A stretch of 32,000 nt of DNA from Candidatus Methanoperedens sp. (GTDB lineage: Archaea > Halobacteriota > Methanosarcinia > Methanosarcinales > Methanoperedenaceae): positions 30,001 through 62,000 of the forward strand of contig JAPZAR010000010.1 of NCBI GenBank assembly GCA_027460535.1. The letters are read 5' to 3'. Both the position numbers and the translations under genes were made by a program. Numbering within the stretch: the first letter of the stretch is position 1; the number at the start of each line of letters is the position of its first letter. Under the pieces are notes generated by a model. It was not told where the DNA came from, made no database searches, and worked only from the letters and a program-made list of their open reading frames with translations. Below are positions 1,071-32,000 of the stretch, one piece after another.

Positions 1071-1084
1071 ATTCGGAGAATTGA

Positions 1085-1606: not shown

Positions 1607-1662
1607 GTTTATCTTTGGAAGAGCAGAAGGAACCGATTCAACCAAAATAAGGAGGAAAAAAT

Positions 1663-2412: not shown

Positions 2413-2423
2413 GGTGATTCAAA

Positions 2424-17997: not shown

Positions 17998-18990
17998 TTA
18001 TTTTTTCCAGGCATAACCATTCTCGGGATTTTTTTTTTCTTTCTCTAATTTATGTTCAAGCTTCATAATTGAAGCCTCGAACAATTCTTTAAATAATCCT
18101 TTTTGTTGCAATGCAAAAAAACCGCTTTCTATGGTTTCGGGCTTCCTTGGGGCAATAAAGGGCAGACTTCCTGTGGATGAATATACAGCCCAGAGATAAT
18201 AAATAAATGTGTAAATACCCACGAAAACGTACATTGTAGCCATCATTACATTATAATTCAAAAGGTTGCCCAGGAGCATTACGGTTACTGGTATGGCAAG
18301 GATTGGCAAAAAAACCATGGACCATGCGGTAGCCTCTTTCCAGAGACCGTATTCGTTTGTAATGAATACCCACCACATGATAAATATCAGAAGAATTGCA
18401 TAGGGTGTGATGCCACTGAGGTTGAAATTTACAAAGAACATGAACGCGGCCATTGTTACTGTCATTAAAAAGATCGTTTTGATCGCAAATTTGATGGAGG
18501 TCCCCACCGCAATGGGCTCCTGCATGAGATCTTTTGATCTTATATCCCTTTCATACCGTTCTTCCAGGATATTCTGGACCTTTAGATCGATATTTGACAA
18601 TCGGTCCAGGACGACATTCGTTCCAATGTGAGCCTGTGCGATGTTTTCGATCAGGGGCTCCAATCTTGCGTAGACCCCATCCTGGAATGCTGTATCGATC
18701 AATACCTCGGTAACGATTCTTCTCTTGAATGTTCTAAAAATAAAATATATCGGACCAATGAATATTATAATAAGAGATATATCTATTAATGCATAAAGAT
18801 AATTTGCGCTGGCAAAATCAATAAAAAAGGAAACGGCTGAAAATAGCAATATTGCTATCGTAATGATCAAAGCGCTTATCAAGCCTATTTTCTCAAAGAA
18901 TTGCAAATGCTGGATTGGCTTTTCAGATATATCCTCATCAACATCGAGCAAAGGGTTCTTCATTTTATCACGGCTATTGCTGGGTCCCAT
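17998..18990 (-). CDS. polytopic (~6 TM) membrane protein of unknown function
   Basis: 330 aa with six hydrophobic helices and a ~75-aa loop between TM2 and TM3. No His or Cys occurs in the helices. Its start overlaps the 3' end of the upstream cytochrome gene by 17 nt. Confidence 0.65.
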   Translation of the reverse strand: MGPSNSRDKMKNPLLDVDEDISEKPIQHLQFFEKIGLISALIITIAILLFSAVSFFIDFASANYLYALIDISLIIIFIGPIYFIFRTFKRRIVTEVLIDTAFQDGVYARLEPLIENIAQAHIGTNVVLDRLSNIDLKVQNILEERYERDIRSKDLMQEPIAVGTSIKFAIKTIFLMTVTMAAFMFFVNFNLSGITPYAILLIFIMWWVFITNEYGLWKEATAWSMVFLPILAIPVTVMLLGNLLNYNVMMATMYVFVGIYTFIYYLWAVYSSTGSLPFIAPRKPETIESGFFALQQKGLFKELFEASIMKLEHKLEKEKKNPENGYAWKK

Positions 18991-20527
18991 TAATATATAT
19001 GGTTACCTGAGGCTCTGTATATATTTTGAAGTGTAATGAATTATTCGGAACAGGATTGTTGGTGTTCTTGCATGCCATGCAGAGATACGATTGAATAAAT
19101 GCCGGCTCCGCACCAATTGAATTTTCTATACCACCCATTGCAGTGCTATTGTAGACGGGAATTTGCGCATTTTCATTCAGATTTACAAGAAGATCGGGTT
19201 TGCCATGGCAATCCAAGCAGGTTATCTGAATTGCACCATGGTTTGGAGAGTTAAATGGATACGCAGGATATGGTGTGGTTCCATTGCTGTTCTGGGTGCT
19301 GGGTCTATGACAGGATTTGCAGTAAGAATTCATATCTGTATAATCAGTAAAATTATGTTTCTGTTTCCATTGTTCATTGGAATGCCCACCAGAAATCACG
19401 GCATCGTTTATATCACTGTGGCAGGATATGCAATCAATCCCGGATATATCTGAGATATTATGTATTTTTCCATTTAAATATTTTGTCACATTTACTTCTT
19501 TTGTAAGCCCATAAGTAAGATTCTCTATCGTCCAGGTACCTGACGAATCCACAACGTCCCATTCGATAAAACTTGGTCTCGTAAAACTTATGTTCGTATT
19601 GAAACTCGAATGGCATGACGTGCATGCGACATCATTTCCTGTGGATATGTTGCTGTTATTAGCGCTTATGACAAATGGGATATGCGCATCCGGTCCATTC
19701 AGGTCACCTGCGTAAACAGGTGCAGTTCTCGCTGGATTACCATTCTGGTCAGTTACGTTCAGCGGTGTAGCACCATGGCAATAGAGGCATGGAGGTACGC
19801 TTGAGGCATGATATGAGGAATATAGCTGATGGCATGAGCCGCATGAAAAATCTTTGTGATGGAAAGAGCTGTTTAGCTGGTCTCTCGTTTCTGAATGGCA
19901 TTTTTCGCATTTCAGCTGTGTTAGGGCAGGGAATTCATGTATACCCGTAGATTCGTTGTCCTGTATCAATAAATGCCTGCTAAAATCATTCTTTGAATAA
20001 TTTGACAGCTGCCATGAGCTATCGTTTGTCCTGTCAGCATTGAATTCATACGTTAAAGCATATAGCATCGAGATAGTAAGCGACTTGGCGGTATGGCACG
20101 AAACACACGCCTCGTTCTCTCCTTTCAGGAATGGAGATGAATTGGCACCCGTTATGAAAGGATTGTGAGATTCATCATTCATAATATTCTCCCCGAAAAC
20201 CTTGGCTAGTGGAGAAACGCTTGTGTTCCCGTCGGAATCAACCGTTCGGTTCGAGGTTCCATGGCAATCAAGGCATCGGGGACTGATCACATTCCCATGC
20301 GTGAGGTTTGAGCTGGTATTCAGGACATGGCAGTTTTCGCATGTGAAAGATGTGTGGATTCCGGAGAGAAGAAGTTCAGACTTTATGTCCGAATGGCACT
20401 TAACGCAATAAGAATTATTTGAATCATAGAACCAGTGCTGACCTCCCAGAAGTGAAAAGATCGCGGGTATAGCGAGAATAGCGATCGAGAAAAGAGCCGT
20501 GACAAGAAAGAAGTGCCGAAGTTCCAT
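18974..20527 (-). CDS. multiheme c-type cytochrome with 11 CXXCH plus 1 CXXCK
   Basis: 517 aa. I counted CVKCH, CENCH, CLDCH, CVSCH, CEKCH, CGSCH, CLYCH, CTSCH, CISCH, CKSCH, CLDCH and a terminal CMACK. The N-terminus has a signal peptide followed by LLGGQHWFY. More than 20 N-x-S/T sequons occur. Confidence 0.9.
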   Translation of the reverse strand: MELRHFFLVTALFSIAILAIPAIFSLLGGQHWFYDSNNSYCVKCHSDIKSELLLSGIHTSFTCENCHVLNTSSNLTHGNVISPRCLDCHGTSNRTVDSDGNTSVSPLAKVFGENIMNDESHNPFITGANSSPFLKGENEACVSCHTAKSLTISMLYALTYEFNADRTNDSSWQLSNYSKNDFSRHLLIQDNESTGIHEFPALTQLKCEKCHSETRDQLNSSFHHKDFSCGSCHQLYSSYHASSVPPCLYCHGATPLNVTDQNGNPARTAPVYAGDLNGPDAHIPFVISANNSNISTGNDVACTSCHSSFNTNISFTRPSFIEWDVVDSSGTWTIENLTYGLTKEVNVTKYLNGKIHNISDISGIDCISCHSDINDAVISGGHSNEQWKQKHNFTDYTDMNSYCKSCHRPSTQNSNGTTPYPAYPFNSPNHGAIQITCLDCHGKPDLLVNLNENAQIPVYNSTAMGGIENSIGAEPAFIQSYLCMACKNTNNPVPNNSLHFKIYTEPQVTIYINGTQQ

Positions 20528-20550
20528 GGTTTATCCCTGCGTTGCAGACC

Positions 20551-21276
20551 TTATCTACTTTGCCATGGCTTTTGTTTCATCGTCAGGCCGACGTACAGAA
20601 GGAGAGAGAATGCCGCTATAACATAACCATAGATCTTCACGACCTGGAAGAAAAGGAAATATTTATTGTAGTCAGTTCCAAAAGGACCGAAATCCTGGTG
20701 CCTATCATCCACTATGAAAAATTTTCCATACCCTTTGATAACTATTGGTTTCCCATTCATCAGGATAGCTTTTCCCAGGATATCTTCTTTTTTGATGTCC
20801 CACCAGTCCACCTGGCCTGTGGCATCCCCGGCCGTATGAATGCCTTCTTTGGTGATGCTTACGATCCGGTGCGAAACCGGATTCGAGGTATCGGGCCGTT
20901 CGAACATTATTATATCTCCGGTTTTGTAGGTGTGCTCTATATTCTGCATCAGGATAATATCGTTAGTATTGAATGTCGGGGACATGCTCCCCGATGCCAC
21001 AGCCGTTAAAAAGATCGCTTTTGTGGAGAGCAGGCCCATTATGAGCAATACGCACATGAGTGCCGATGCCTCTTTAAAGAACACCTTCTGAAAATCCAGA
21101 GGTCGCCTGTTTATTTTTTTGATATATCTGTCCATTCTCTGCTTTCTGCCAAATTCCCAGTATCGTTGCCTGATGGTTTCAAGGACGTCCGTATTTTGTA
21201 CGATTTTTCTGTAAACAAGCATCAAGAAAATACCGAGCGATACCAGGAACAGTATATCATTTAGTGGTATATACAT
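20551..21276 (-). CDS. type I signal peptidase (S26 family, archaeal/ER Ser-His type)
   Basis: 241 aa. The boxes are SGSMSPT (catalytic Ser), GDIIMF, SHRIVS (His in place of the bacterial Lys) and TAGDATG. TM helices are present at the N- and C-termini. Confidence 0.8.
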   Translation of the reverse strand: MYIPLNDILFLVSLGIFLMLVYRKIVQNTDVLETIRQRYWEFGRKQRMDRYIKKINRRPLDFQKVFFKEASALMCVLLIMGLLSTKAIFLTAVASGSMSPTFNTNDIILMQNIEHTYKTGDIIMFERPDTSNPVSHRIVSITKEGIHTAGDATGQVDWWDIKKEDILGKAILMNGKPIVIKGYGKFFIVDDRHQDFGPFGTDYNKYFLFFQVVKIYGYVIAAFSLLLYVGLTMKQKPWQSR

Positions 21277-21308
21277 AAGGTATTCACATTTGTTTCATAT
21301 TTATTACT

Positions 21309-22022
21309 TCAGGGATTGAGGGGGTCCCATCCTATTGGGGTCGGAGATATAGAGATCACAGGTTGTGTCGAATTGTTTACTCCGCCGGACTGGTTGCCGT
21401 ATGTCTGTATGAAAGCTGATCCTTCGATCGTGAAGTTGCCAACTGTCCATGTACGGCTGCCGTCCGAGGACATGTTCTCCTGTGCATCAAAGGCTATTTT
21501 GTACGCTTTCGTCCAGTTGATATCTACGGCTACGTGCGTGTGGCATGCGATACATGCTTCATTGGCTCCCTTTAGCAGGGAAGAGTTGCTAGCCGCGTTT
21601 GCGAACGGCTTGTGGACCTCCTCAGGTCCATTGAGAATATTTGTTGCGTTCAATCCAGGTTCGAATGATGCGTTATGGCAGTCCAGGCAGGCGGGAGATG
21701 CAGCCGCATGGAATTGACCACCTGTTAAATCAGGGGGTCCATTAACGATACCTTCTTTTTGCATCGCTGTCGTCATATGGCATCCTTCGCAGCCGTATGC
21801 CCTGTGGGCTGCATTGACCCCCCCTGGCTGTTTTAGCTCTGCAAAGATATCGGCATGACATTTTCCGCAGGGAATATTGGTTGTAGTTCCTCCTCCATAA
21901 ACATTATTGCTTATCGTATCATAGAAATTATGCTGGCCTACGAATAACGCAAGTGTCTGTGGCAGAGCTACAAGTCCCACAGCTGCTATTGCCAGCCCGA
22001 TTAACATCAATTTGGTAGCCAT
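21309..22022 (-). CDS. tetraheme c-type cytochrome, LFxGQH family (paralog A)
   Basis: 237 aa with CGKCH, CEGCH, CLDCH and CIACH. The Sec-type signal is MATKLMLIGLAIAAVGLVALPQTLA, followed by LFVGQHNFY. Eight N-x-S/T sequons occur. A GGAAGAGGT ribosome-binding site is present. Confidence 0.9.
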   Translation of the reverse strand: MATKLMLIGLAIAAVGLVALPQTLALFVGQHNFYDTISNNVYGGGTTTNIPCGKCHADIFAELKQPGGVNAAHRAYGCEGCHMTTAMQKEGIVNGPPDLTGGQFHAAASPACLDCHNASFEPGLNATNILNGPEEVHKPFANAASNSSLLKGANEACIACHTHVAVDINWTKAYKIAFDAQENMSSDGSRTWTVGNFTIEGSAFIQTYGNQSGGVNNSTQPVISISPTPIGWDPLNP

Positions 22023-22209
22023 TTATTCTGGTACCTCTTCCTATCCGGAATTATAAAGGCGTATTTTATATATCTTCTTATGGGAAATATACTTTCCGAT
22101 TTCAAAACACATGACATGATTTTAATAAGTTTTATAATTATATGCTCCTTGCCTTTATTAAAAATGCTGGCATGGGAAAAAAAATAGAAATATTCAATGG
22201 CTCAAACAT

Positions 22210-22245
22210 AAAAAAATAAATAGGAAAAATTTTTTTTTCCTATTT
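22210..22245 (-). terminator. AT-rich hairpin plus T7 run downstream of tetraheme paralog B
   Basis: On the minus strand the sequence reads TAAataggaaaaaaaaatttttcctatttattttttt. The 12-bp stem is aaataggaaaaa / tttttcctattt and overlaps the stop codon. A T7 run follows. Confidence 0.4.
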
Positions 22246-22975
22246 ACGGAGTGCTCGGGTCCCATCCTGGCGGTGTTGGCGATACAGTTACAACCGGTGC
22301 GGTAGAAGCATTATTTTCACCTGACATGTTACCATAGGTCGTTATATTGGCGGAGCCCTGAATTCCAAAGCTGCTGATATTCCATGAATGGGTGCCGCTG
22401 CCGTCAGTGGCCATTTGTGCTACTGAGGTAAAGTTCATCATGTATGCCTTTGACCAGCTGATATTCACGGCCACATGCGTGTGGCATGCGACACATGCTT
22501 CGTTAGCCCCCTTCAAAAGGGAAATATTATTGGTCTGATTTGCAAATGATGCATGAACTTCTACATTGGTTATAACTCCCGTTGTGTTAGTAACAATTCC
22601 AAAAATATTACGTGCATCGTTTATGCCTGTGCTATTTCCATCATGGCAATCTAAACAGGCAGGAGCTGCAGCAGCGTGGAACTGCCCTGTAGGCCCGTTA
22701 TAGAAACCTTCCTTTTGGAGCGCTAGCATGTGGCATCCTCCGCAGCCCTGTTGAAGGTGAACTGAATTTACCGCTCCAGCCTGTTTCAACTCTGCATATA
22801 CATCAGCATGGCATTTTCCGCAAGGGATATTGCTTCCGTTGCCAAAATTGTAGAAATTAGTCGTCATCGTATCGTAGAAATTATGCTGCCCTGCGAATAA
22901 AGCCAGCGTCTGCGGCAGCGCGACCAATCCTACTGCCGCGACTGCAAATCCCATGAGCACAAGTTTGTTCACCAT
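22244..22975 (-). CDS. tetraheme c-type cytochrome, LFxGQH family (paralog B, tandem to A)
   Basis: 243 aa with CGKCH, CGGCH, CLDCH and CVACH. The signal MVNKLVLMGFAVAAVGLVALPQTLA is followed by LFAGQHNFY. The C-terminus SPTPPGWDPSTP is shared with paralog A. An AGGTGA ribosome-binding site is present. Confidence 0.9.
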   Translation of the reverse strand: MVNKLVLMGFAVAAVGLVALPQTLALFAGQHNFYDTMTTNFYNFGNGSNIPCGKCHADVYAELKQAGAVNSVHLQQGCGGCHMLALQKEGFYNGPTGQFHAAAAPACLDCHDGNSTGINDARNIFGIVTNTTGVITNVEVHASFANQTNNISLLKGANEACVACHTHVAVNISWSKAYMMNFTSVAQMATDGSGTHSWNISSFGIQGSANITTYGNMSGENNASTAPVVTVSPTPPGWDPSTP

Positions 22976-23094
22976 AATTTAAGTCACCTATTCTTACCTG
23001 GATTAAAATTCAGACAATCGATTTATCTTTTTTAAAGGATTTATACTTATCTATTAATACTTTAACGCGAGCTGTTGAATCATTATTGTCGCAA

Positions 23095-23523
23095 TTATTT
23101 CCAGAACATATTATCCACTACATAGCCTATCCTGTTCCCGTCTTTATCGACAACGATAATGGAAATATGCACGATGTCGCCGGATACGGGATTATGATCC
23201 TCCTGGAAACCTATGTTGAAAGAATATTTTCCGTTTCCCTTGTAGGTCAGCATTTCCCATGGACCGATAGTGCTGTTTGGACCTTTAGATATCATCGTCC
23301 TGGCACCTATGGCCGGGAAAGAATCAGCCTCCGTGTTTCTCGGTCTGTTGAGGTAGGCCACAGTTCCCTGAGTCAATGTGTAGTTCTGAGCGACGACAAT
23401 TCCCTGGTTTTCCACAAAGGCAATATTTACTTTCACAACAGGCACCTGCTTGGCAGGATTGGTTATACATCCTGAGAATAGTATCACGGGAAGGATCAAC
23501 AATATCATAAGAATTTTTTTCAT
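23095..23523 (-). CDS. small putative lipoprotein of unknown function (paralog of 30223..30684)
   Basis: 142 aa. The N-terminus MKKILMILLILPVILFSGC is lipobox-like. The C-terminal half aligns with 30223..30684 (GKYSFNIGFQEDHNPVSGDIVHISIIVVDKDGNRIGYVVDNMFW vs GVYTLRMFFRDGMEPKKGDVLIIPIRLVSHTGAIQYKTTAFYCW). Confidence 0.65.
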   Translation of the reverse strand: MKKILMILLILPVILFSGCITNPAKQVPVVKVNIAFVENQGIVVAQNYTLTQGTVAYLNRPRNTEADSFPAIGARTMISKGPNSTIGPWEMLTYKGNGKYSFNIGFQEDHNPVSGDIVHISIIVVDKDGNRIGYVVDNMFWK

Positions 23524-23527
23524 AAGA

Positions 23528-24196
23528 TTACCTTATCATTTGAAACAGCGAATCTATCATTTTTCCTATCAACTGACCGATAGTGGGATACTCAAGAGCG
23601 GCAGCGGCCTGAAGGTTTGGCACAGAGGGTGGTGGCATTTTCTGGCCTGCAAACGTCTCTCCGAACTCACCATGGCATGCAACGCACATTTTTTCAAGCC
23701 TTTTGCCATGGACCACATGCGGATCGCCGCCGTGGCAGTCCGAGCATTTTGTCTTCTCTGGTTTTTGAACCGTATTGTTCATAAATGTATGGCAGCTACG
23801 GCATGACACGTTGCTCATAATCCTGTGGAAATCCGCTGCGGTAACATTATTCCCATCTTTATTCCCCACATGGCACTTGATGCACACTATATCCTTATGG
23901 ATTTCGAAGATCTGGGCCATATCCACTTTTAACCCTTGAGCATTTTTTGGCTTGTAATCATGGCATTTACATCCATTGGATATTGACTGTGCTTTCTCGG
24001 TTCCAAGTAGCGTGTAATGGCAGGGGATACAATAGCTCCCGGGATGCCAACTTTCGGTCAATCCATCCGTGAATTGCGGTCTTTCGTATGCATTTGAAGG
24101 CATCGCCAGGATAAACGGGATTATGAGGGAAAAGATCAAAATTATCTTCTGAAACTCATATACTGCATTCCTTTTTAAACTATTTTCACTGGACAT
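23528..24196 (-). CDS. multiheme c-type cytochrome with 5 CXXCH plus one shifted CXCH
   Basis: 222 aa with CIPCH, CIKCH, CRSCH, CSDCH and CVACH. GCKCH occupies the position where the paralog 29545..30147 has CGNCH. The signal peptide ends in SNA. A C-terminal amphipathic helix is present. Confidence 0.9.
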   Translation of the reverse strand: MSSENSLKRNAVYEFQKIILIFSLIIPFILAMPSNAYERPQFTDGLTESWHPGSYCIPCHYTLLGTEKAQSISNGCKCHDYKPKNAQGLKVDMAQIFEIHKDIVCIKCHVGNKDGNNVTAADFHRIMSNVSCRSCHTFMNNTVQKPEKTKCSDCHGGDPHVVHGKRLEKMCVACHGEFGETFAGQKMPPPSVPNLQAAAALEYPTIGQLIGKMIDSLFQMIR

Positions 24197-24215
24197 GGAT
24201 CCATTAATATGTGAT

Positions 24216-25841
24216 TTATCTTCTGAAATTATGTCTTTTTATTAACCATATAACTATGAAAAGCATGATAAAAATATATCCCTGGAATCCGGACGCCGGT
24301 TTTGGCGTCGTGACAGGCGTCCCGGTGATCCCTGGAGTGGCGGTCTGCACCGGGATACGGGTAACTTCAATAGCAGGGCCTTCCAGCTTCAAAGGTTCCC
24401 TGACATCCAAAACAAGATAGTTTGAAACAGCCCTCTGCGTGTACCTTTCATCCAGATAGAGAAACTGGTCCAAAACTATCGCCTTTGCAGGAGGGATAAC
24501 AAAACTGCCCGAAGCATTTGCATTGAGTGCATAAGAGAAGGATGCCGATTCCCCGGAATGAAGCACAACCGTATTTAAAACAACCTTATATTTTTCAGGC
24601 GACGCGTTTGAGATGGAGTTGTCAGGTGGTAGGCCATCACTCAGTTTTACTATCGCGGTGGCGTCCCCCTGGTTTTTTGCCTCCACTGTAACACTGATAT
24701 TCTCTCCCACAACAGGATTGATAATGTTTGCGGATTTGACCAATACCACATAAGGACCATTAACTATCAGCTTGGCAGGTTTTTCATTGTACCCGAATCC
24801 CCCCGGGTATTCGAAAATCGAGCTTCCGGGCATTAATAGATAAGTCCCTGGCTTTTGTGGTTTTATAGCATAGGATATCAATTTATGCTCAAGAGGTCCC
24901 AGCGAAAAATTCCATGAAAGGTTCGTATCCAGCGGTTCAAGGTCCGGGGGCAGACTGTCGGTGAGGCTCACGTTATCGATCGGCAGGCTGAGATTGTTGG
25001 TAAGGCTTAATGAAACCACGGCAATATCACCCATGTATATTTTTTCGGAAACAAATTTTCCAAACATTATCCTTTTATCCATCTCCCTTACTTCGATATA
25101 GGTTGAATCAACGGCCTTGTAGGCTCTTCTCAGAACGTCATTTCCGTTTACCTCAGCTGAGATCTGGAAGGACTTGCCCTCTGTTATATACGGAGCTTTG
25201 AACCTGACTGTGATAATATCAGATTCATTTCCAGCTTTCAATTCGGGCAATTCATAGTCGAGTCTCTCATGCGCTAGCGGAGGTAATGACGTATTGATTT
25301 GTAAAGTCGGGCTTCTTAACGAGCCTTTGCCGTCATTCCTGATGGTAAAATTGATCGAGATCTCAGAGCCTGGAGCAAATATGCGACTTACAATCGTTCT
25401 ATTATTGAAATGCTTCTCAGCAGGGAGGACTGATAATTTAGGTAACGGGGTACCCGGGACTCGTGTCCGGATCTTTACCCACTGGTCCGCGATCGCATTT
25501 ACTCCATGGGCTGCACCGATGTTCGCGAACCTGTCCTGAAGATCAATAATTGTAATATTCAACCTGTTATCAATAGAAAAAGAATCATTGATCCGCGTAA
25601 TGTTACTTGTAACCAGCCTGTGGTCAGAATCGTACACTGTTATCAGGGCCATGAGATCCTTGAAATCCGTATTATTATAGAAACCCGTTGCCTCGATCTG
25701 GAAACCTTCTCTGGTGAAAGAATCGGTAAATCTCAATGTTTTTTCCTGCGGGTCGACCCATTCTATCTCATCTGCGAATGCAGGATAAATACCTGTGTAA
25801 ATCAAAATTAAAACTATCACTATTTTGTAGAGGTATTTCAT
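24216..25841 (-). CDS. DUF11/CARDB-like repeat cell-surface protein with a C-terminal anchor
   Basis: 541 aa with signal MKYLYKIVIVLILIYTGIYPAFA. Repeats of the type ...LTNN..LPIDNVSLTDSLPPDLEP and ...EAKNQGDATAIVKLSDGLPPDNS are present. The C-terminus is PASGFQGYIFIMLFIVIWLIKRHNFRR. Confidence 0.7.
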   Translation of the reverse strand: MKYLYKIVIVLILIYTGIYPAFADEIEWVDPQEKTLRFTDSFTREGFQIEATGFYNNTDFKDLMALITVYDSDHRLVTSNITRINDSFSIDNRLNITIIDLQDRFANIGAAHGVNAIADQWVKIRTRVPGTPLPKLSVLPAEKHFNNRTIVSRIFAPGSEISINFTIRNDGKGSLRSPTLQINTSLPPLAHERLDYELPELKAGNESDIITVRFKAPYITEGKSFQISAEVNGNDVLRRAYKAVDSTYIEVREMDKRIMFGKFVSEKIYMGDIAVVSLSLTNNLSLPIDNVSLTDSLPPDLEPLDTNLSWNFSLGPLEHKLISYAIKPQKPGTYLLMPGSSIFEYPGGFGYNEKPAKLIVNGPYVVLVKSANIINPVVGENISVTVEAKNQGDATAIVKLSDGLPPDNSISNASPEKYKVVLNTVVLHSGESASFSYALNANASGSFVIPPAKAIVLDQFLYLDERYTQRAVSNYLVLDVREPLKLEGPAIEVTRIPVQTATPGITGTPVTTPKPASGFQGYIFIMLFIVIWLIKRHNFRR

Positions 25842-25976
25842 CGATTCACCATTATCGTTTTCCTATTAATGACATCATTTTCGGATACATTTATAGAACG
25901 TGTAGAATTGTCATATTTCAATTCGTAGCCTTAAACATTTGCGTTTCATAATGCTATTGCATTTTAATAAAATTCA

Positions 25977-27443
25977 TTACTTAATTAATTTTTTTATCGA
26001 TATCGCCAGAATAAGTCCCATAATGCCAATCAGAAAATAGAATCCCGGTATTCTAGCCGGTGGTGTTTTCTCAGGTACTTCACTGCCGAGATATGTGATC
26101 GTCCTTTTCTCTGTTCTGATATTACCAGCTTTATCTACCGCCACTATAGTTATTATATTAGTGCCGTTTGAAAGGGTAATTACAGAATTCCAGTTATTTG
26201 TCCCGGCGTTCACCCCATTGACCGTCACTAACAGGATGCCACTTGCATCTTCCGCCGTACCCGATATAGAAAATTTATCGGAAGTAACATTTGAAGGTAT
26301 GGGATTGATTCTTAGGACTGGGGGGGTGGTATCCGGTGGCAATGTGGGAGCAACGGTGGGGGTCTCGGGTATCGGAGCTCCGAATGCATACACGTACCCA
26401 TCCCGTGCTGTGGCAAATAACATGTTATCCGATAGGGCCAGGGCGATTACCCCGCTTCCTATCATATATTTATCCATTAATGTCCCATCTGCCGCATCCA
26501 GAGCATATACTGTCCCGTCTTTTGATCCTGCATATACTATTCCCTGCGTTACTACGGGAGACGATTCGACCCGGTCAGAAGTCTTAAATTTCCAGAGCCA
26601 GTCCCCGTTGTCGGCATTCAGCGCATAAAATGTATTATCATTCGATCCTACATATACAGAATTCTCAAGAACAGCAGGTGAGGATCTGACCCAATCATTT
26701 GTTTTCTTGCTCCATTTCAATTCTCCGCTGCTGGAATCTATGGCGTAAATGTTATTATCGTTTGATCCCACATACAAAACGCCGTTCATTACAGAAGGTG
26801 AAGAAAAGACACTTCCACCCGTCTTGTATTTCCACCTGAGATTATTTCCAGCATCCAGAGCATATATGTTATTATCATTTGAACCGACGTAGAGTAACCC
26901 CTGGGCTATTGCAGGTGAGGATTCAACAAAGCCTTGAGTTGAATATTTCCACTTTAAACTTCCATTAATAATGTAAATTGCATAGATGTTCCTGTCAAAG
27001 CCGCCATAAAGAATATTATTATAGGAAATTGGCGGTGAAGCAGAGCTGCTTCCTGTATTATATTTCCATTTAAGGTTCCCGCTATAATCCAGAGCATAAA
27101 TATAATTGTCAAAAGAAGGTGCGAATACGATTCCATTCCTGGCTGCCGGGGTATAAATCTTTCCAAGACCTGGATATTTCCATTTCAATTTTCCCGATGC
27201 TGCGTTTATCGCGTACAGATTGTTGTCATCAGATCCTGCGAACAGGGTCCCGGAATCAATTATCGGCGCAGAGATATCAGAATCCCCTATTTCATATTTC
27301 CACCTTAATTCAAGGGGGACAGTTTGACCTTCCGAATATCCACTGTGCTGCAGGTCCCCACCAACATTCTGCCATTTGCCAGAAGAATTATAAGAAGAGA
27401 GGAGTATAAAAATTAATATCAAAACTGAAGGCCATTTTCGCAT
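25977..27443 (-). CDS. PQQ-like beta-propeller repeat protein with an Ig-like domain and PGF-CTERM sorting signal
   Basis: 488 aa with about 8 repeats of the type N(I/L)YA(I/L)D..(S/N)G.LKWKY. A Pro/Thr linker and a beta-rich domain follow. The C-terminus is ARIPGFYFLIGIMGLILAISIKKLIK, i.e. PGF, a TM helix and a basic tail. Confidence 0.85.
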   Translation of the reverse strand: MRKWPSVLILIFILLSSYNSSGKWQNVGGDLQHSGYSEGQTVPLELRWKYEIGDSDISAPIIDSGTLFAGSDDNNLYAINAASGKLKWKYPGLGKIYTPAARNGIVFAPSFDNYIYALDYSGNLKWKYNTGSSSASPPISYNNILYGGFDRNIYAIYIINGSLKWKYSTQGFVESSPAIAQGLLYVGSNDNNIYALDAGNNLRWKYKTGGSVFSSPSVMNGVLYVGSNDNNIYAIDSSSGELKWSKKTNDWVRSSPAVLENSVYVGSNDNTFYALNADNGDWLWKFKTSDRVESSPVVTQGIVYAGSKDGTVYALDAADGTLMDKYMIGSGVIALALSDNMLFATARDGYVYAFGAPIPETPTVAPTLPPDTTPPVLRINPIPSNVTSDKFSISGTAEDASGILLVTVNGVNAGTNNWNSVITLSNGTNIITIVAVDKAGNIRTEKRTITYLGSEVPEKTPPARIPGFYFLIGIMGLILAISIKKLIK

Positions 27444-27853
27444 GATTTTACTACATCATATCCTATTTTAAAACTATGCACGCAGGCATGCAGTCTTTAA
27501 TAATTAAATCTATCAGGCAGCGGAATAGCTCAAATCTTTGGATTGTATTTATTCGAGTATTGTAGTATAACATTTATAACAACCTTGCAGATTTATAGTA
27601 CATGCAATAAAGTATATGTAATTATGATTATGCTCATTATTATTAGTATCATAATTATTTTAATCATTTTAAAAATCGTTAACTATAAATACCGGAATAC
27701 AGTATACTAATTATACCCAAATTAAACCCAAATTTGGAGTAATGGATAGGATAGGAGTAAAAGCAAAAAAATGATGCAGACGTATTCTGTTCTTGAATTA
27801 CTGCTTTGGGAAGATGGGCTATATTAACAATAGATAGGAAGGATGAAAAAAAT
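27444..27853. promoter_or_regulatory. 410-bp AT-rich divergent intergenic (promoter) region
   Basis: It lies between the divergently transcribed propeller gene (-) and the pentaheme gene (+). It is very AT-rich with several TATA-like runs (tttataac, tttatagt, ctataaatacc). No convincing ORF is present. Confidence 0.4.
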
Positions 27854-29155
27854 ATGAATGCAAAATTTAGTTTAGCCTTAATTGCGTTAGTTGGAGTAGG
27901 CGTGTTCGCTCTGCCATCCACGATGGCATTGTTCGCAGGGCAGCACTCATTCTACAACATCGACGCAACAGGCAATCAGGTACCGTGTCAGAAATGCCAC
28001 GGTGACGTGAAAGCAGAATTGAGCAGTGGAGCTTCAGCGACCACAGGCACCCCAGGACCCCACGCAAATTTCAAATGCGAATATTGCCACAGGGCTGAGG
28101 CAGGCGCAGCAAGCGGTGACGATGCATCAGCAGAGATCAGTTATAGGGCAGTGGCCCCGGATACTGGGAGTATTAAACTCGTAACTACAGTGCAGAATTT
28201 CGAGAGAGGGAACTTCCCCAAGAATATCACTTATAGGACTGGCATGACCGTGGACAACTGGAATGCGACACCTTCAGATATACAAAATCTGGACGGCTCA
28301 AATTTCAATGACCAGTTAGCATACCGGGATAACAGTGCTAAGTACAGGGGCAGCCTGACCACCTTTGGTACCAATGGTGTAAAATACAGCTATTCCGGCT
28401 CCTCTGAAGTAGGACTTCGGCCTAACGGAGTGCCGAAAGATACACAACTGACGACGCAGAACACGGCGTTCAATCCAAGAGCGGTAAATTTCACTGGAGT
28501 GACGACTGCAAACTATGATTTCGCAGGTTCAAGAGAAGTCACACCGGGTTCACAGTACCATGCAGCATCTCTCGTCTCATGCCTGGAATGCCATGGCGGA
28601 GAAAAGGAAACGGGTATTGCAGGATACGAGATCGAAAGCGGACCTCCCTATAAACACGAGTCATGGCTACTTAACGGCGAAGGCGGAAGCAGCTGCAATG
28701 ACTGCCACTATGGTGGAAGTGCACTGAGGGAGCGGAATCTCGCTGCAGGTGGATTCGGCTTGACCCCATATGGCAACGACACCGGCGCAATAGAAGCCCA
28801 TAATGCCTTCGTGAAGACGGATGACGGCCTTGACAGGTTCGGCTACGGCGCATCCAATGGCGCATGCATCGCATGCCATACGCACGTTGCAGTGGACATC
28901 ACCTTCCAGAAGGGCTACACGCTATCCTTTGACGCAATCGAGAACTCAGGTACATACAGCGTTGGCAACTTCGCTGTCGGAGGACAGGTCAATGTCGAAA
29001 TATACGGCAATGGCTCAGGCCAGACATTCGCAACCGGCAACAAGACCTATACCTGGACGCCAAGCAGTACGCTGTATCTTAATGGAAACAGTACACAGGT
29101 CAGCGGTCTAAATGGAGATAATAACGACACTGCAGCAGCTTTAACATCCCCGTAA
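27854..29155 (+). CDS. pentaheme c-type cytochrome, LFxGQH family (paralog C, with insertion)
   Basis: Contains CQKCH, CEYCH, CLECH, CNDCH and CIACH. I place the start at the ATG at 27854 (MNAKFSLALIALVGVGVFALPSTMA, then LFAGQHSFY), which matches the paralog N-termini. The track's 27806 start is a TTG. Confidence 0.9.
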   Translation: MNAKFSLALIALVGVGVFALPSTMALFAGQHSFYNIDATGNQVPCQKCHGDVKAELSSGASATTGTPGPHANFKCEYCHRAEAGAASGDDASAEISYRAVAPDTGSIKLVTTVQNFERGNFPKNITYRTGMTVDNWNATPSDIQNLDGSNFNDQLAYRDNSAKYRGSLTTFGTNGVKYSYSGSSEVGLRPNGVPKDTQLTTQNTAFNPRAVNFTGVTTANYDFAGSREVTPGSQYHAASLVSCLECHGGEKETGIAGYEIESGPPYKHESWLLNGEGGSSCNDCHYGGSALRERNLAAGGFGLTPYGNDTGAIEAHNAFVKTDDGLDRFGYGASNGACIACHTHVAVDITFQKGYTLSFDAIENSGTYSVGNFAVGGQVNVEIYGNGSGQTFATGNKTYTWTPSSTLYLNGNSTQVSGLNGDNNDTAAALTSP

Positions 29156-29158
29156 ATG

Positions 29159-29192
29159 AAATGGGTAACCCCCATTTCTCTTTTTCTTTTTT
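29159..29192 (+). terminator. hairpin plus T-run terminator
   Basis: The stem is aaatggg / cccattt with loop taacc. It is followed by ctctttttctttttt and starts 4 nt after the stop codon. Confidence 0.5.
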
Positions 29193-29310
29193 AGTTGCAT
29201 TTACTTGATTTATCGATACTCTTCTAATTATCACGATTAAAAATTCTTGATGCTTTTCATCCGGTGTAAACTTTATATACTTTAGTAACAAATATTACTT
29301 TTGTGATAGG

Positions 29311-29538
29311 ATGAAAGTAGTGAGAATAGAGGATACGGATAAGATCCACTTTGATAATCTCAAAGCGGATTTCAAGAACCGATTTTCGAAAGAGCCAGAC
29401 TGTGATGTGAAAGAGGTCAGCACATTAAAGGATTCATGTTTTTTGAATATTCTTCTTGAGGTCTGGAGAATGACCCCGTATGAAGAAGCTGTTAGGAAAC
29501 TTTCAGAATCTCAGGTGTTCAATAATTATAAAAAGTGA
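29311..29538 (+). CDS. hypothetical small cytoplasmic protein
   Basis: 75-aa ORF ending 6 nt before the hexaheme gene start. It has no signal peptide, and I recognise no family. Confidence 0.4.
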   Translation: MKVVRIEDTDKIHFDNLKADFKNRFSKEPDCDVKEVSTLKDSCFLNILLEVWRMTPYEEAVRKLSESQVFNNYKK

Positions 29539-29544
29539 ATGTGA

Positions 29545-30147
29545 ATGAATAAAAACGCTGTATATCCCTGCCTTGTCTTAATCTCCGTTTTACTTACCGC
29601 AGGGGCCGTAAGTGCGGATATTCCGCCAGGGCATAAACCTATCCCATGCTTTGGATGTCATGCAGAGACGCTGAACGCTGATTACGGACCTGGTGAATGC
29701 GGGAACTGCCATGATTACATTCTGGGGGAAGGAGGAGGCTTCAATGTGCCTCTTCTGCAATCCCAGCATAACCCGAACATCTGTACAGCATGCCATATGG
29801 GGAATACACTGGTCAATGCAAGCGCAAGAGACATTTTCCACAACGGTCATAACGCAGTAGAATGCAAACAGTGCCATGAGACAGGGAACTCCACGATTGT
29901 GAAAATCCAGGGAATTGAAGAAAAAGGATATCCCTGCGTGGCATGCCATGGCAATCAGATTCATTCGATACATATAAAGAACCTGGATAAGATCTGCTCT
30001 ATATGTCACGGTTCATGGGCAAAAGACAAGGTTTATGCAGGCAACTCTGCCTCTTCTCCATCGAACAATTCTCAAAAGAACCTCGAAAAATTCACCATAT
30101 TCGATCTTATAAAAAACTTATTTAATGCTATATTTGGAATGATATAA
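29545..30147 (+). CDS. hexaheme c-type cytochrome (paralog of 23528..24196)
   Basis: 200 aa with CFGCH, CGNCH, CTACH, CKQCH, CVACH and CSICH. The signal peptide ends in VSA. The C-terminal helix is FTIFDLIKNLFNAIFGMI. Confidence 0.9.
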   Translation: MNKNAVYPCLVLISVLLTAGAVSADIPPGHKPIPCFGCHAETLNADYGPGECGNCHDYILGEGGGFNVPLLQSQHNPNICTACHMGNTLVNASARDIFHNGHNAVECKQCHETGNSTIVKIQGIEEKGYPCVACHGNQIHSIHIKNLDKICSICHGSWAKDKVYAGNSASSPSNNSQKNLEKFTIFDLIKNLFNAIFGMI

Positions 30148-30222
30148 ATGCACCAGGAAAAAAACTTTAAATACAAAATTTTACTGCTGATACTTTCAGT
30201 ATATGGATAGGAGCGAATGTAA

Positions 30223-30684
30223 ATGGATAAGAAAAAAATCTTAAAATACACAGTGGTAGTGCTGTTGATACTTTCGGTATCAGGGTATTACCTATACCAG
30301 CATGCTTTAGATATCGGCCTGGAAAAACCAGCACTTGTACTGACGGTCTCTACGAATCTGACAGATAAGGGTACCCCAATAATCAACAATGTCACATTCG
30401 AGGAATCCAGTGTGATGTTCTTCTATAAGAGAGCGGATACGCCTGCGAATTTCCCGGAAATAGACGCTAACGCCCGAATCAATAAGCTTGCCGCAATTCC
30501 TGCGAGCTTTTGGGCTTCAATTCATCGCCCAAGCGAAGGCGTGTATACCCTGAGGATGTTCTTCAGGGACGGTATGGAACCTAAAAAAGGCGATGTCCTG
30601 ATCATACCGATCCGCCTTGTAAGCCATACGGGAGCCATCCAGTACAAAACAACAGCTTTCTATTGCTGGAGTTGTGAGGAATGA
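30223..30684 (+). CDS. small N-terminally anchored protein of unknown function (paralog of 23095..23523)
   Basis: 153 aa with an N-terminal TM helix (ILKYTVVVLLILSVSGYYLY) and no lipobox Cys. The C-terminal half aligns with 23095..23523. Confidence 0.65.
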   Translation: MDKKKILKYTVVVLLILSVSGYYLYQHALDIGLEKPALVLTVSTNLTDKGTPIINNVTFEESSVMFFYKRADTPANFPEIDANARINKLAAIPASFWASIHRPSEGVYTLRMFFRDGMEPKKGDVLIIPIRLVSHTGAIQYKTTAFYCWSCEE

Positions 30685-30685
30685 G

Positions 30686-31645
30686 ATGAAACTGATGTGG
30701 GTATTGCTTGCGCTGGGCGGGATTTCATTATGGGTTATTCCCAATACCCTTTCCCTCTTCAGCGGAGGGCATGCCTACTATAACATTGATGCCAATGGTT
30801 CACAGGTCCCATGCCAGAAATGCCATGGGGATATCCAGATAGAGATCCATACGGGCTCCATACATTCCAATTTTACATGTGCCGACTGCCACCGCGTCCA
30901 GAATGGCGTACAGTACGCAAGCGGCGACGATGCATACGAGCGGCTCATATATATCAACGTGACCGGGCCGACGAACATAGGGAACAGGGTTCTTGCAACA
31001 ACGCTGGGGAATTTCCAGAGAGGTAATTTCCCAAAATCAATAATCGGTGAAACTATGATCGACCAGTGGGCAGTCTCCGGAAATGACGAGGTGCAGTTCC
31101 GGGATGCAAATAATCAATATGCTGGCGCCATGACACCCGGCGAAACAGGCATATTATACAACTACGCATATGCAGAAGAGATAAGCACGTATTTTAATGG
31201 AACACCAAAAGACACAGACCTTTTCACCCAACAAAATATGCTTGACCCAAGATTGATTACTGTGAACCCGAACCGTTTGGGTTCGGACGATCTCATAGGC
31301 GCGGGGTCCAGAGTGGTTACACCCGGGACATTGGCCCATGCAGCATCGACTATCCTGTGCGAAGAGTGTCACTCAGATTATCTGGCCAAAATGCCTGACA
31401 ATATACATGAAGCTTTCATCAAGTATGGTATGGAACACGATACAAACGAAAACTGCATCGCATGCCACACTTCAACAGCCGTATCAATTAACTGGACCCG
31501 TCCGAGCACACTGGGCATTGAAACAGGCTCTGATGGCTACAATATCACAATCAAGAAGACCTACTCGGCTTTCAATGAAAAACTTGAAACTTTTGGAAAT
31601 AAGGAAGGTAATGTTTTCGCAGTATCGAATGTGACAATAATATAA
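30686..31645 (+). CDS. tetraheme c-type cytochrome, LFxGQH family (paralog D, with insertion)
   Basis: Contains CQKCH, CADCH, CEECH and CIACH. I place the start at the ATG at 30686 (MKLMWVLLALGGISLWVIPNTLS, then LFSGGHAYY), 2 nt after the upstream stop and preceded by GTGAGGA. The track's 30674 start is a GTG. Confidence 0.9.
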   Translation: MKLMWVLLALGGISLWVIPNTLSLFSGGHAYYNIDANGSQVPCQKCHGDIQIEIHTGSIHSNFTCADCHRVQNGVQYASGDDAYERLIYINVTGPTNIGNRVLATTLGNFQRGNFPKSIIGETMIDQWAVSGNDEVQFRDANNQYAGAMTPGETGILYNYAYAEEISTYFNGTPKDTDLFTQQNMLDPRLITVNPNRLGSDDLIGAGSRVVTPGTLAHAASTILCEECHSDYLAKMPDNIHEAFIKYGMEHDTNENCIACHTSTAVSINWTRPSTLGIETGSDGYNITIKKTYSAFNEKLETFGNKEGNVFAVSNVTII

Positions 31646-31706
31646 ATATTCAAGTGCTAATTATTTAAAAAATGTATAATAATAGAAATAAATTGTGTTC
31701 GATTGT

Positions 31707-32000
31707 ATGAAAAGAATTATCGTATTAATATTCACGCTAATGCTATTGTCGCAGACCGCATCAGCTCTGGGCGAGTTCAGGTTTGATTTTGCAACTTCGG
31801 TCGCTGGGGTTAGTAACTACACAAAGCACTGGTCAAATACCTATCCTCCCGATCCAAAAGCGGACATTATAATTTATTCAGCGGCCTATAATATGTCCTA
31901 CAAACGCATATCAGCTGTCACGTTCCTCTATACCGTCTATGATCCGTATGACAATGTCGTGAGCGTGCAAACGATAGACTCTTTCAAGCGCGGTTATGAC
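31707..32000 (+). CDS. secreted surface protein, 3'-truncated by the window edge (N-terminal domain paralogous to 16472..17842)
   Basis: My own translation is MKRIIVLIFTLMLLSQTASALGEFRFDF...HWSNTYPPDPKADIIIYSAAYNM...VTFLYTVYDPYDNVVSVQTID, open to nt 32000. It resembles HWNDRFPPGSILKIYAEANG...VDYVFIIRDSNNNIVDTAAYSD in the CARDB protein. It is absent from the ORF track because no stop codon falls inside the window. Confidence 0.6.
   Translation, partial: MKRIIVLIFTLMLLSQTASALGEFRFDFATSVAGVSNYTKHWSNTYPPDPKADIIIYSAAYNMSYKRISAVTFLYTVYDPYDNVVSVQTIDSFKRGYD

Follow-up and report, generated by a model that had tools for sequence, protein, structure and literature searches.

A 32,000-nucleotide (nt) stretch of the genome of Candidatus Methanoperedens sp. 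(NCBI GenBank assembly GCA_027460535.1, contig JAPZAR010000010.1, positions 30,001 to 62,000 of the forward strand; the window in what follows) carries a cluster of multiheme cytochrome genes together with genes for a signal peptidase, a membrane protein with six transmembrane helices (6-TM), and small and surface-anchored proteins. The cluster consists of two ancient, divergently transcribed paralogous copies (the minus and plus arms) of a gene set conserved among archaea, here in a member of the anaerobic methanotrophic (ANME) lineage ANME-2d. By sequence, its cytochromes with an LFxGQH start are clearly homologous to AvECN, which is the subunit of the extracellular cytochrome nanowire (ECN) of Archaeoglobus veneficus. 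All of the open reading frames (ORFs) were found in the window at the coordinates listed here, and the plus arm was read beyond the right-hand edge from a 50.6-kb Logan contig (SRR20964299_32, L007) with 0 mismatches to the window over 11,315 nt. Lengths of proteins are given in amino acids (aa).

15730..16467, minus strand: archaeal MinD-type P-loop ATPase (TIGR01969 minD_arch, 218 bits, cut-off 201.75)
16472..17842, minus strand: CARDB456, CARDB-type surface protein of the "surf" family (Pfam CARDB, E=4e-8)
17998..18990, minus strand: 6-TM membrane protein with a long helix, "8x TMH" family (homology, AlphaFold2 model)
18974..20527, minus strand: cyt517, multi-unit ECN-like cytochrome with an LLGGQH leader (11 CXXCH and 1 CXXCK)
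20551..21276, minus strand: archaeal/endoplasmic reticulum (ER)-type signal peptidase I of family S26 (TIGR02228, Pfam Peptidase_S26)
21309..22022, minus strand: cyt237, AvECN-family tetraheme cytochrome, candidate wire subunit (phmmer against the PDB)
22244..22975, minus strand: cyt243, AvECN-family tetraheme cytochrome, tandem paralog of cyt237 (motifs, alignment)
23095..23523, minus strand: small142, N-anchored beta-sandwich protein with a lipobox-like SGC, "small" family (AlphaFold2 model)
23528..24196, minus strand: cyt222, hexaheme cytochrome with a C-terminal hydrophobic helix (5 CXXCH and CXCH)
24216..25841, minus strand: surface protein with DUF11/BatD/CARDB repeats, anchored at its C terminus, close to the head of the minus arm (Pfam)
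25977..27443, minus strand: surface protein combining a PQQ/BamB-like beta-propeller, an Ig-like domain, and a PGF-like tail at the C terminus (Pfam; tail by eye)
27444..27805, no strand: AT-rich divergent intergenic region of ~360 bp between the arms (GC 0.37 in that kilobase), a presumed promoter region
27854..29155, plus strand: cyt449, AvECN-family pentaheme cytochrome with an insertion of ~150 aa (433-aa gene call; longest ORF from 27806)
29545..30147, plus strand: cyt200, hexaheme cytochrome, paralog of cyt222 (6 CXXCH)
30223..30684, plus strand: small153, N-anchored protein, paralog of small142 (BLASTP, hhalign)
30686..31645, plus strand: cyt323, AvECN-family tetraheme cytochrome with an insertion domain of ~130 aa (319-aa gene call)
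31707..32000, plus strand: N terminus of a 488-aa anchored surface protein (the rest lies beyond the window on L007)
L007 11022-14945, plus strand: continuation of the plus arm beyond the window (488-aa surface protein, 228-aa signal peptidase, 294-aa 7-heme cytochrome [cyt294], 293-aa membrane protein)

The NCBI records for the 6-TM protein, the peptidase, the small protein, cyt222, and cyt517 (MCZ7355985-91, O8C66_083xx) read hypothetical protein, signal peptidase I, or multiheme c-type cytochrome, and nothing further; cyt237 matches an NCBI protein of the same organism at 100% identity. The seven cytochromes in the window hold 39 CXXCH motifs (11 in cyt517; 6 in cyt200; 5 each in cyt222 and cyt449; and 4 each in cyt237, cyt243, and cyt323), the same count as in an earlier first-pass annotation of this DNA made from its letters alone; the additional site behind that annotation's "5(+1)-heme" label is a CKCH motif in cyt222.

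The two arms had been described as sharing their gene order on both strands and as pairing member by member at the protein level. The pairing holds. In BLASTP comparisons between the arms, whose E-values were computed on a tiny database, cyt222 and cyt200 are 32% identical over 178 aa (E=5e-18), small142 and small153 are 23% identical over 132 aa (E=1.5e-7), cyt237 and cyt243 both match cyt323 at both ends (E ~1e-11), and CARDB456 matches the window-truncated ORF at 31707 (24% over 82 aa, E=2e-7) as well as the full 488-aa plus-arm protein (21% over 394 aa, E=1e-20). The small pair is recovered also when small153 is left out of the family profile (hhalign probability 96.9%, E=1.8e-10). Past the window, the plus arm continues with a peptidase 33% identical to that of the minus arm (E=4e-29), with cyt294, which matches cyt517 (E=2e-39), and with a 293-aa membrane protein 29% identical to the minus-arm 6-TM protein (E=4e-19), so that seven families are duplicated in two divergently transcribed arms. 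These pairings are backed by shared matches to the same families in other genomes. As a mirror image, the arrangement is inexact: the surface protein occupies different positions in the two arms, the minus arm starts with the beta-propeller and DUF11 proteins and the plus arm with cyt449, and the closest paralog of cyt323 is cyt449 of its own arm (32% over 401 aa, E=4e-58). At the nucleotide level, the arms have diverged as the first-pass annotation stated, with similarity limited to three patches of 43-92 nt at 74-79% identity. Proteins of the minus arm are closer to homologs in ANME-1 and ANME-2 than to their plus-arm paralogs (the 6-TM protein, for example, scores 184 bits against its homolog in the ANME-2 locus L083 and 76-85 bits against its own paralog); the duplication is therefore old, as had been proposed, or one arm was acquired.

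Two further properties had been attributed to these proteins, secretion signals and an unusual number of N-x-S/T sequons. A hydrophobic N-terminal segment, a putative secretion signal, is present in 7/7 cytochromes, and the sequon enrichment is borne out. Within the window, the sequon density of secreted proteins is 2.48 per 100 aa, versus 0.32 for cytoplasmic ones, and cyt517, cyt237, cyt243, and the 541-aa protein contain 2-3 times as many sequons as shuffled sequences would lead one to expect. The sequon enrichment, together with the AglB gene adjoining the cluster in another Methanoperedens (L088), fits glycosylated extracellular proteins.

Conservation of the cassette in other ANME and Archaeoglobi genomes, the neighborhood test that the first-pass annotation had set for itself, was assessed by scanning GTDB species genomes with an AvECN-led alignment and searching the ORFs of the resulting 78 loci with the module proteins. 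These 78 ECN loci come from Archaeoglobaceae, Geoglobus, ANME-1 (Methanophagales), ANME-2 Methanosarcinales, Syntrophoarchaeum, and others, and the families co-occur across orders. Two blocks recur. In the first, a run of ECN genes is followed by the peptidase, an ECN gene (4-5 hemes), a multi-unit ECN gene (8-10 hemes), and the 6-TM gene, often then by a small 4-5-heme cytochrome; in the second, a divergent surface-protein gene faces a hexaheme gene followed by a small-protein gene. Both blocks, and with them the full seven-family set, occur together in L083 (ANME-2) and L084 (ANME-1), and most of the families are found in L051 (Archaeoglobus sp. JdFR-37), L027 (ANME-1), and L082 (Syntrophoarchaeum). 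In L088, the minus-arm order is intact and there is no inverted second arm; AglB lies upstream and a MinD-like ATPase downstream. Profile iteration over the 78 loci added no peptidase, 6-TM, small, or surface members, and the iterated hexaheme profile turned unspecific and was discarded. A scan of viral contigs with the small-protein profile returned nothing, a metagenome scan with small153 returned one 1.2-kb contig only (too little for comparing the plus-arm order), and a protein search with an AvECN fragment gave three partial relatives only.

In ANME-1, ANME-2, and related loci, the cytochrome often found after the 6-TM gene is a small, lipoprotein-like protein of 4-5 hemes with a Pro/Thr-rich linker (L055 1633-2112; L067 6748-7281; L083 6744-7208; L084 12884-13417; L085 12833-13291), which the window does not have at that position. 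The AglB/STT3 oligosaccharyltransferase gene of L088 (5432-7693) stands just upstream of the minus-arm-type cluster and fits the sequon enrichment.

Against this background, it is very improbable that the two arms are a recent mosaic or a chance likeness, in which unrelated CXXCH-rich genes align spuriously and no true duplicated module exists. CXXCH motifs do inflate alignments, and the between-arm E-values derive from a very small database, but families without hemes (peptidase, 6-TM, surface, and small) pair as well, and the same families appear in the same order in other archaeal orders; the paralog pairs outside the cytochromes and the cross-taxon synteny refute it.

Searched with phmmer against all PDB chains, cyt237 has a sole match, 8e5g_A (E=2.4e-29), which it covers in two stretches (chain residues 5-127 and 157-250). 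Both cyt449 (E=1.7e-22) and cyt517 (E=2e-8) match 8e5g too, and cyt243 (58% identical to cyt237) and cyt323 are tied to the family via cyt237 and cyt449. The same type of search with cyt237, cyt222, cyt449, cyt517, and cyt200 (E<=1 to 5) returned no chain of OmcS, OmcE, or OmcZ. AvECN (F2KMU8 / AEA46122, PDB 8E5G) was reportedly described by Baquero et al. in 2023 (Cell 186:2853). Entry 8E5G is given as the A. veneficus nanowire in other work as well (PMC12954529, bioRxiv 10.1101/2023.06.12.544705), and members of the family, called "MmcX" in one study (PMC11176372), have been reported in Methanoperedens, ANME-1, ANME-2, Syntrophoarchaeales, and Archaeoglobales (PMC11176372, PMC12246660, PMC13046784). 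The window proteins share with AvECN the sequence of its putative leader and LFxGQH start, its four CXXCH motifs in the same order, its range (Archaeoglobales, ANME-1, ANME-2, ANME-2d, and Syntrophoarchaeales), and, in the case of cyt237 and cyt243, a similar size. They differ in that AvECN is a solved filament and theirs a proposed one, and in the insertion of cyt323 and cyt449, the fifth heme of cyt449, and the multi-unit build of cyt517 and cyt294 with a CXXCK ending. An expectation of extracellular electron-transfer hardware in an mcr- and fwd-bearing archaeon, expressed in the first-pass annotation, is supported; the mcrB, mcrD, mcrG, mcrA, fwdB, and fwdA genes of the window all score above NCBIfam cut-offs.

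All four CXXCH motifs align with those of AvECN in cyt237, cyt243, cyt323, cyt449, and the first units of cyt517 and cyt294. Four histidines outside these motifs (in GQH; before heme 2; in HAA before heme 3; and in ExH before heme 4) are likewise aligned in the same proteins, save that the first unit of cyt517 is without the HAA histidine and has the other three. According to a review, a different subunit supplies the distal histidine of 3/4 hemes in AvECN (PMC12203936), and the conserved non-motif histidines are therefore probably the ones on which stacking depends.

In the plus-arm proteins cyt323 and cyt449, the AvECN core is interrupted between hemes 2 and 3 by an insertion of about 130-150 aa that holds no heme; cyt449 also carries one heme more than the four of AvECN. 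The insertion is shared between the two, carries the motif NFxRGNFPK, and has no family assignment; any wire formed from these proteins would be surface-decorated. A GC-rich hairpin followed by a T-run lies at 29158-29178 on the plus strand, 3 nt past the stop codon of cyt449, and for this reason cyt449 may be transcribed alone, as would suit an abundant structural subunit. An AvECN-family N terminus (43% identity, E=4e-16) is also encoded at positions 10001-10234 of L089, a 74-kb viral contig (IMG/VR UViG_3300020045_010174) and the sole contig returned by the viral-contig scan with the ECN profile, in agreement with a preprint on multiheme cytochromes of Methanoperedens viruses.

Three consecutive segments of cyt517 align to cyt237, so cyt517 looks like roughly three concatenated AvECN-like units; cyt517 and cyt294 have 12 and 8 sites, respectively, the final one being CXXCK (CMACK at residue 483 of cyt517; CISCK at residue 264 of cyt294, L007 13178-14062). 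A CISCK site is present also in an ANME-2 homolog (L083 4258-5517). This site aligns with the last CXXCH of the homologs, just before a conserved HFxIYTEP tail. It may hold a Lys-ligated heme, and in bacteria such a heme requires a special heme lyase.

A CXXCK heme raises the prospect that the cluster encodes a membrane-bound reductase (of a soluble or surface-bound substrate, for example nitrite, a metal chelate, or selenite), with a Lys-ligated catalytic site as in NrfA and with the hexaheme and 6-TM proteins as electron input. We consider this improbable. The motif does occur in the two Methanoperedens paralogs and an ANME-2 homolog, and there are weak matches to the NrfH, NrfB, and DmsE models, but these stay far below the NCBIfam cut-offs (27 bits versus 134, 31 versus 167-184, and 54 versus 192, respectively). 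In most taxa with the same cluster, the site is CXXCH, so it cannot be a conserved function. Moreover, the 6-TM protein is without a conserved histidine for heme b and without a match to a quinone-site family, and the strongest homology in the cluster is to a wire.

The leader of the AvECN-type proteins is conserved to a degree that may point to specific processing. Across 134 ECN-like ORFs from the 78 loci, the residues preceding the predicted cleavage site read L-P(96%)-x-T(88%)-x-[S/A/T], with S, A, or T at -1 in 100%, and those following it read L (81%), F (95%), x, G (100%), Q (93%), H (100%), x, W (95%), Y (95%). Small residues at -3 and -1, present in all members, would suit cleavage by a type I signal peptidase just before LFxGQH. 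Ordinary signal peptides are not usually conserved on both sides of the cut; that this one is suggests that a dedicated enzyme acts on it and that the newly formed N terminus has a function. Within the module, the motif is confined to ECN-type proteins. From the sequences, we infer a class-specific leader, LPxTx[S/A]↓LFxGQHxWY (the arrow marks the putative cut), that would be cleaved by a dedicated peptidase.

A candidate enzyme is encoded in each arm, and both copies are intact members of family S26. The minus-arm peptidase scores 63.2 bits against TIGR02228 sigpep_I_arch (cut-off 51.85), and both copies pass Pfam Peptidase_S26 (28.5 and 33.4 bits versus 22.9). The translations contain the boxes SGSMSP, HRIV, and GDATG in the minus arm and SDSMRP, HRVV, and GDNNP in the plus arm, which we take to be those of the catalytic Ser, His, and Asp of S26B enzymes. 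Peptidase homologs lie inside runs of ECN-like genes in 11 of the 78 loci, with an ECN-like gene directly after them in 10 of the 11; by chance, a housekeeping gene would be expected within 10 kb at ~1% of loci. Against the SipW model NF046067, the cluster peptidase reaches 41 bits, short of the equivalog cut-off of 190.

The gene for the 6-TM protein matches no Pfam or NCBIfam family in library scans and belongs to a rare family (just 69 clusters at 50% identity among 1.84 billion representatives). Over 248 aa, the protein shares 38% identity (174 bits) with an ORF of L084 (RCV62945.1 / C5S53_16290) that appears under "8x TMH" in the S2 Data of Chadwick et al. 2022, there assigned to ANME sp. 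CONS3730B06UFb1. The published topology of that family (eight transmembrane helices and a large, Trp-rich periplasmic loop) is not what hydropathy and the AlphaFold2 model (pLDDT, the predicted local distance difference test score, of 83) give here, namely, six membrane helices and one helix of ~85 residues spanning residues 64-150; this mismatch bears on the published description, not on membership in the family. The long loop or helix (~residues 90-165) comes after a KRR-rich stretch, and from such positive-inside residues and from homologs with N-terminal TPR domains but no signal peptides, the helix is probably cytoplasmic. The invariant residues are a WW pair inside helix 4 and P234. The family has no Cys and no conserved His, and the model has almost no extracellular loops.

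Some 6-TM homologs (P0200, P0202, P0214, and P0216) include fusions to N-terminal cytoplasmic TPR-like domains via long acidic linkers, and one homolog of 1483 aa has an N-terminal beta-propeller, Ig domains, and a long repetitive C-terminal region. As the fusion partners are TPR-like or beta-propeller domains and not cytochromes, they provide no Rosetta-stone link to hemes. Three ideas for the 6-TM or the small protein (CcmE-like heme chaperone, archaeosortase, heme-handling protein) were dropped, there being no meaningful fold relative in the PDB.

Three further families, the hexaheme, small, and surface proteins, complete the set. An alignment with homologs from L010, L015, L019, L024, L050, L051, L083, and L084 reveals a conserved CXCH site in the hexaheme family (CKCH in cyt222, residues ~75-78), the column of which is an ordinary CXXCH in cyt200 (CGNCH) and in an Archaeoglobus homolog (CSPCH). 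As judged from the aligned residues, this suggests a noncanonical heme attachment site with a one-residue spacer in most members. A C-terminal helix with the tail YPTIxxLIxxhI is common to cyt222 and cyt200. By sequence search of the PDB, the hexaheme family has no relative (the best match of cyt222 is NrfH, E=0.016).

Library scans of Pfam and NCBIfam assigned no family to small142, whose AlphaFold2 model is an all-beta sandwich (pLDDT 91.7). Its 57 homologs are nearly all unnamed, the remainder being called hypothetical, and the family has no invariant His or Cys. Small homologs lie beside or near the hexaheme gene in L010, L015, L024, L050, L051, L083, and L084, and homologs of the surface protein adjoin it in L010, L015, L051, L083, and L084. 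CARDB456 has hydrophobic segments at both ends, as an N-terminal signal and a C-terminal membrane anchor.

The first-pass annotation presented the cassette as a candidate undescribed module, a description that does not survive comparison with the literature, since its tetraheme proteins belong to the family of a solved nanowire and its peptidase and "8x TMH" genes have been in a published catalogue since 2022. Chadwick et al. 2022 reported a "signal peptidase" and an unannotated "8x TMH" gene adjoining cytochrome genes and a CcmF paralog, found only in ANME, Syntrophoarchaeum, Argoarchaeum, Geoglobus, and Ferroglobus, and described small ANME multiheme cytochromes as a widespread, highly transcribed family (PMC9012536). 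The S2 Data of that study tag C5S53_16295 as the peptidase (RCV62946.1 of L084), C5S53_16290 as 8x TMH, and C5S53_16265 as CcmF. Of the three parts that the annotation could not place in any cytochrome conduit, C5S53_16290 and C5S53_16295 show that two, the 6-TM protein and the peptidase, were already on record; the small protein is still unnamed in the literature searched. Locus tags of the hexaheme, small, and surface genes that lie between the listed ones are absent from the supplements examined. In a literature search that did not cover Baquero et al. 2023, we found no paper that brings together the AvECN family and the peptidase/8x TMH genes, and none that names the hexaheme/small/surface triad as members of the cluster. 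The pair in the window and that of Chadwick et al. are the same two families, with the same restricted range and the same place in multiheme cytochrome clusters, including the ANME-1 fosmid cluster of Meyerdierks et al. 2010. They differ in context: the published pair adjoins the giant S-layer cytochrome MHC-B and CcmF2, whereas the pair in the window sits among AvECN-type genes and occurs twice in the Methanoperedens genome. Neither CcmF nor an S-layer cytochrome is present within the 50-kb stretch of the Methanoperedens contig.

On balance, and by no wide measure, we think it probable that the cluster is the set of genes for biogenesis, anchoring, and electron input of AvECN-type wires. Under this proposal, the ECN-type cytochromes (cyt237, cyt243, cyt323, cyt449, cyt517, and cyt294) would be exported with the class-specific leader, their hemes being added outside the membrane. 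The signal peptidase I of the cluster would then cut at LPxTx[S/A]↓LFxGQHxWY and free an N terminus with an invariant His, which belongs to the four histidines outside the heme motifs that AvECN shares. Processed tetraheme subunits could stack into a heme wire by intersubunit His ligation, as in the AvECN filament. The wire would be held, and fed with electrons, by a membrane base of four parts: the 6-TM protein, the small beta-sandwich protein, and two cytochromes, namely, the multi-unit ECN-like one and the hexaheme with its C-terminal helix. CARDB-type glycoproteins would be associated components of the envelope, and the two arms would yield two wires, a plain one from the minus arm and, from the plus arm, one decorated with the insertion domain of 130-150 aa.

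The main rival, which we regard as unlikely yet worth serious attention, holds that these cytochromes are short-range carriers and that the peptidase, the 6-TM and small proteins, and the CcmF of other taxa are generic maturation factors for multiheme cytochromes with no specific role in wires. This is just what Chadwick et al. propose for the small ANME multiheme cytochromes, and they read the peptidase, 8x TMH, and nearby CcmF as general cytochrome-maturation factors (PMC9012536). A CcmF paralog does follow the small-protein gene directly in L083 (9699-11539) and L084 (16753-18708), as identified by Pfam Cytochrom_C_asm (E=2e-30), CcmF_C, and a WWD-type motif, and the CXCH and CXXCK variants could need special heme attachment. 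In addition, 67 of the 78 ECN-like loci have no peptidase within 10 kb, so that a housekeeping peptidase may process many of the paralogs. Other points weigh against a wire cluster in the same way. Polymerization is not deducible from sequence, and no filaments have been visualized yet in Methanoperedenaceae (PMC13046784). A. veneficus, the species of the proven wire gene, is not among the 78 loci of the GTDB scan. Finally, fold searches of the PDB gave no relative for the 6-TM model and nothing significant for that of small142 (best E=0.03, TM-score <=0.51); with neither having structural relatives, the roles given to these two proteins are guesses.

Several observations nevertheless speak against generic maturation. 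As far as alignment can tell, the closest solved relative is a filament whose ligand histidines are all kept; the leader motif is confined to the ECN-type proteins that flank the peptidase; and a 6-TM protein with no conserved His or Cys and almost no extracellular loops fits heme handling poorly. Two complete, co-diverged copies in one genome would not be expected of generic factors either: that every family is kept in two co-diverged copies, the paralogs being as distant from each other as from other orders, fits specific interacting partners better than housekeeping or maturation machinery, and this is the strongest indirect argument for specific physical partnerships.

A bolder form of the wire-cluster proposal appears to us possible and rather doubtful. 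It would make the seven-family cluster a self-contained, previously unrecognized nanowire assembly system, in which leader cleavage by the dedicated peptidase triggers polymerization, the 6-TM protein and the lipoprotein-like beta-sandwich nucleate and anchor the wire, the three-unit ECN serves as its base or cap, the CXCH hexaheme injects electrons, and the two wires serve different electron acceptors.

Comparable arrangements exist in bacteria. The tapA-sipW-tasA operon of Bacillus subtilis, by analogy and not by homology, combines the gene of a fiber subunit with its own ER/archaeal-type S26 peptidase and an anchoring accessory protein; here, however, the fiber candidate is a heme protein, not a TasA jelly-roll, and there is no TapA-like protein. 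With OmcS, OmcE, and OmcZ of Geobacter and Desulfuromonas, the cluster has in common a polymerized multiheme wire, proposed in our case. Clusters of OmcE combine the wire subunit with multiheme cytochromes and beta-propeller lipoproteins (bioRxiv 10.1101/2025.10.22.684050), surface proteins of a kind found here too, and OmcZ has a processing protease, OzpA. In contrast to these systems, ours shows no sequence similarity to them in the PDB searches, belongs to an S-layer archaeon without an outer-membrane barrel, and has a signal peptidase as its protease rather than a subtilisin. The two electrode-induced Methanoperedens clusters of Ouboter et al. (NrfD-like and OmcZ-like) are different from this one.

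Anaerobic methane oxidizers must send electrons to minerals, electrodes, or partner cells by a long-distance route that is not yet settled. Recent papers describe the secretion, assembly, and anchoring of cytochrome nanowires as unexplained, a 2025 preprint doing so for secretion and assembly (bioRxiv 10.1101/2025.10.22.684050). The gene set in the window is real, conserved, and biologically meaningful, and it is not a new kind of system, given that its core lies in a solved nanowire family and that two-thirds of its "mystery" genes were catalogued in 2022. What is new is the link between the AvECN literature and that on the peptidase, 8x TMH, and CcmF; the class-specific leader; the hexaheme/small/surface triad; the CXCH and CXXCK variants; and the extent and age of the duplication. 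The locus unites the solved AvECN wire with the ANME-specific "signal peptidase / 8x TMH / CcmF" genes in one conserved cluster and provides, along with a predicted cleavage site, a short list of proteins that may assemble and anchor wires; for wire building, these helpers are at present the best candidates. Its two diverged copies in one genome are a natural experiment on partner specificity. Should the helpers prove to be mere general maturation factors, the finding shrinks to a well-annotated case of an ANME cytochrome cluster already known.

Genes at the margins of the arms vary in their ties to the module. The DUF11 surface protein (Pfam BatD, DUF11, and CARDB; 15 sequons versus 4.3 expected) has an ortholog at the same position in L088 and was not found near the module outside Methanoperedens in the loci compared. 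The beta-propeller protein matches Pfam Beta-prop_ACSF4 (E=4e-62) and PQQ_2; its C-terminal tail, "...ARIPGFYFLIGIMGLILAISIKKLIK", looks PGF-like by eye, and the NCBIfam scan reported no PGF-CTERM model. Its membership in the module is uncertain. The MinD-type ATPase adjoins the CARDB protein in the second Methanoperedens as well (L088 18075-18812), and a homolog (E=7e-40) lies beside the hexaheme gene of Archaeoglobus sp. JdFR-37 (L051 3569-4297). From these positions, it is a possible accessory gene of the module; it could position the apparatus, or its adjacency could be coincidental.

Upstream of the cluster lie a partial mcrB followed by mcrD, mcrG, and mcrA, as well as fwdDBAC, in which fwdD and fwdC are named from position alone. 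The mcr operon (window 1-4124, plus strand) keeps the order mcrB-mcrD-mcrG-mcrA, with no mcrC between D and G. Just downstream of mcrA, at 4929-7100 on the plus strand, is a gene for a 723-aa B12-binding radical SAM protein, which could be an Mcr-modifying enzyme. Its matches, all below threshold, are to models of the RiPP and P-methyltransferase types, with a weak one to the model of the Mcr glutamine C-methyltransferase.

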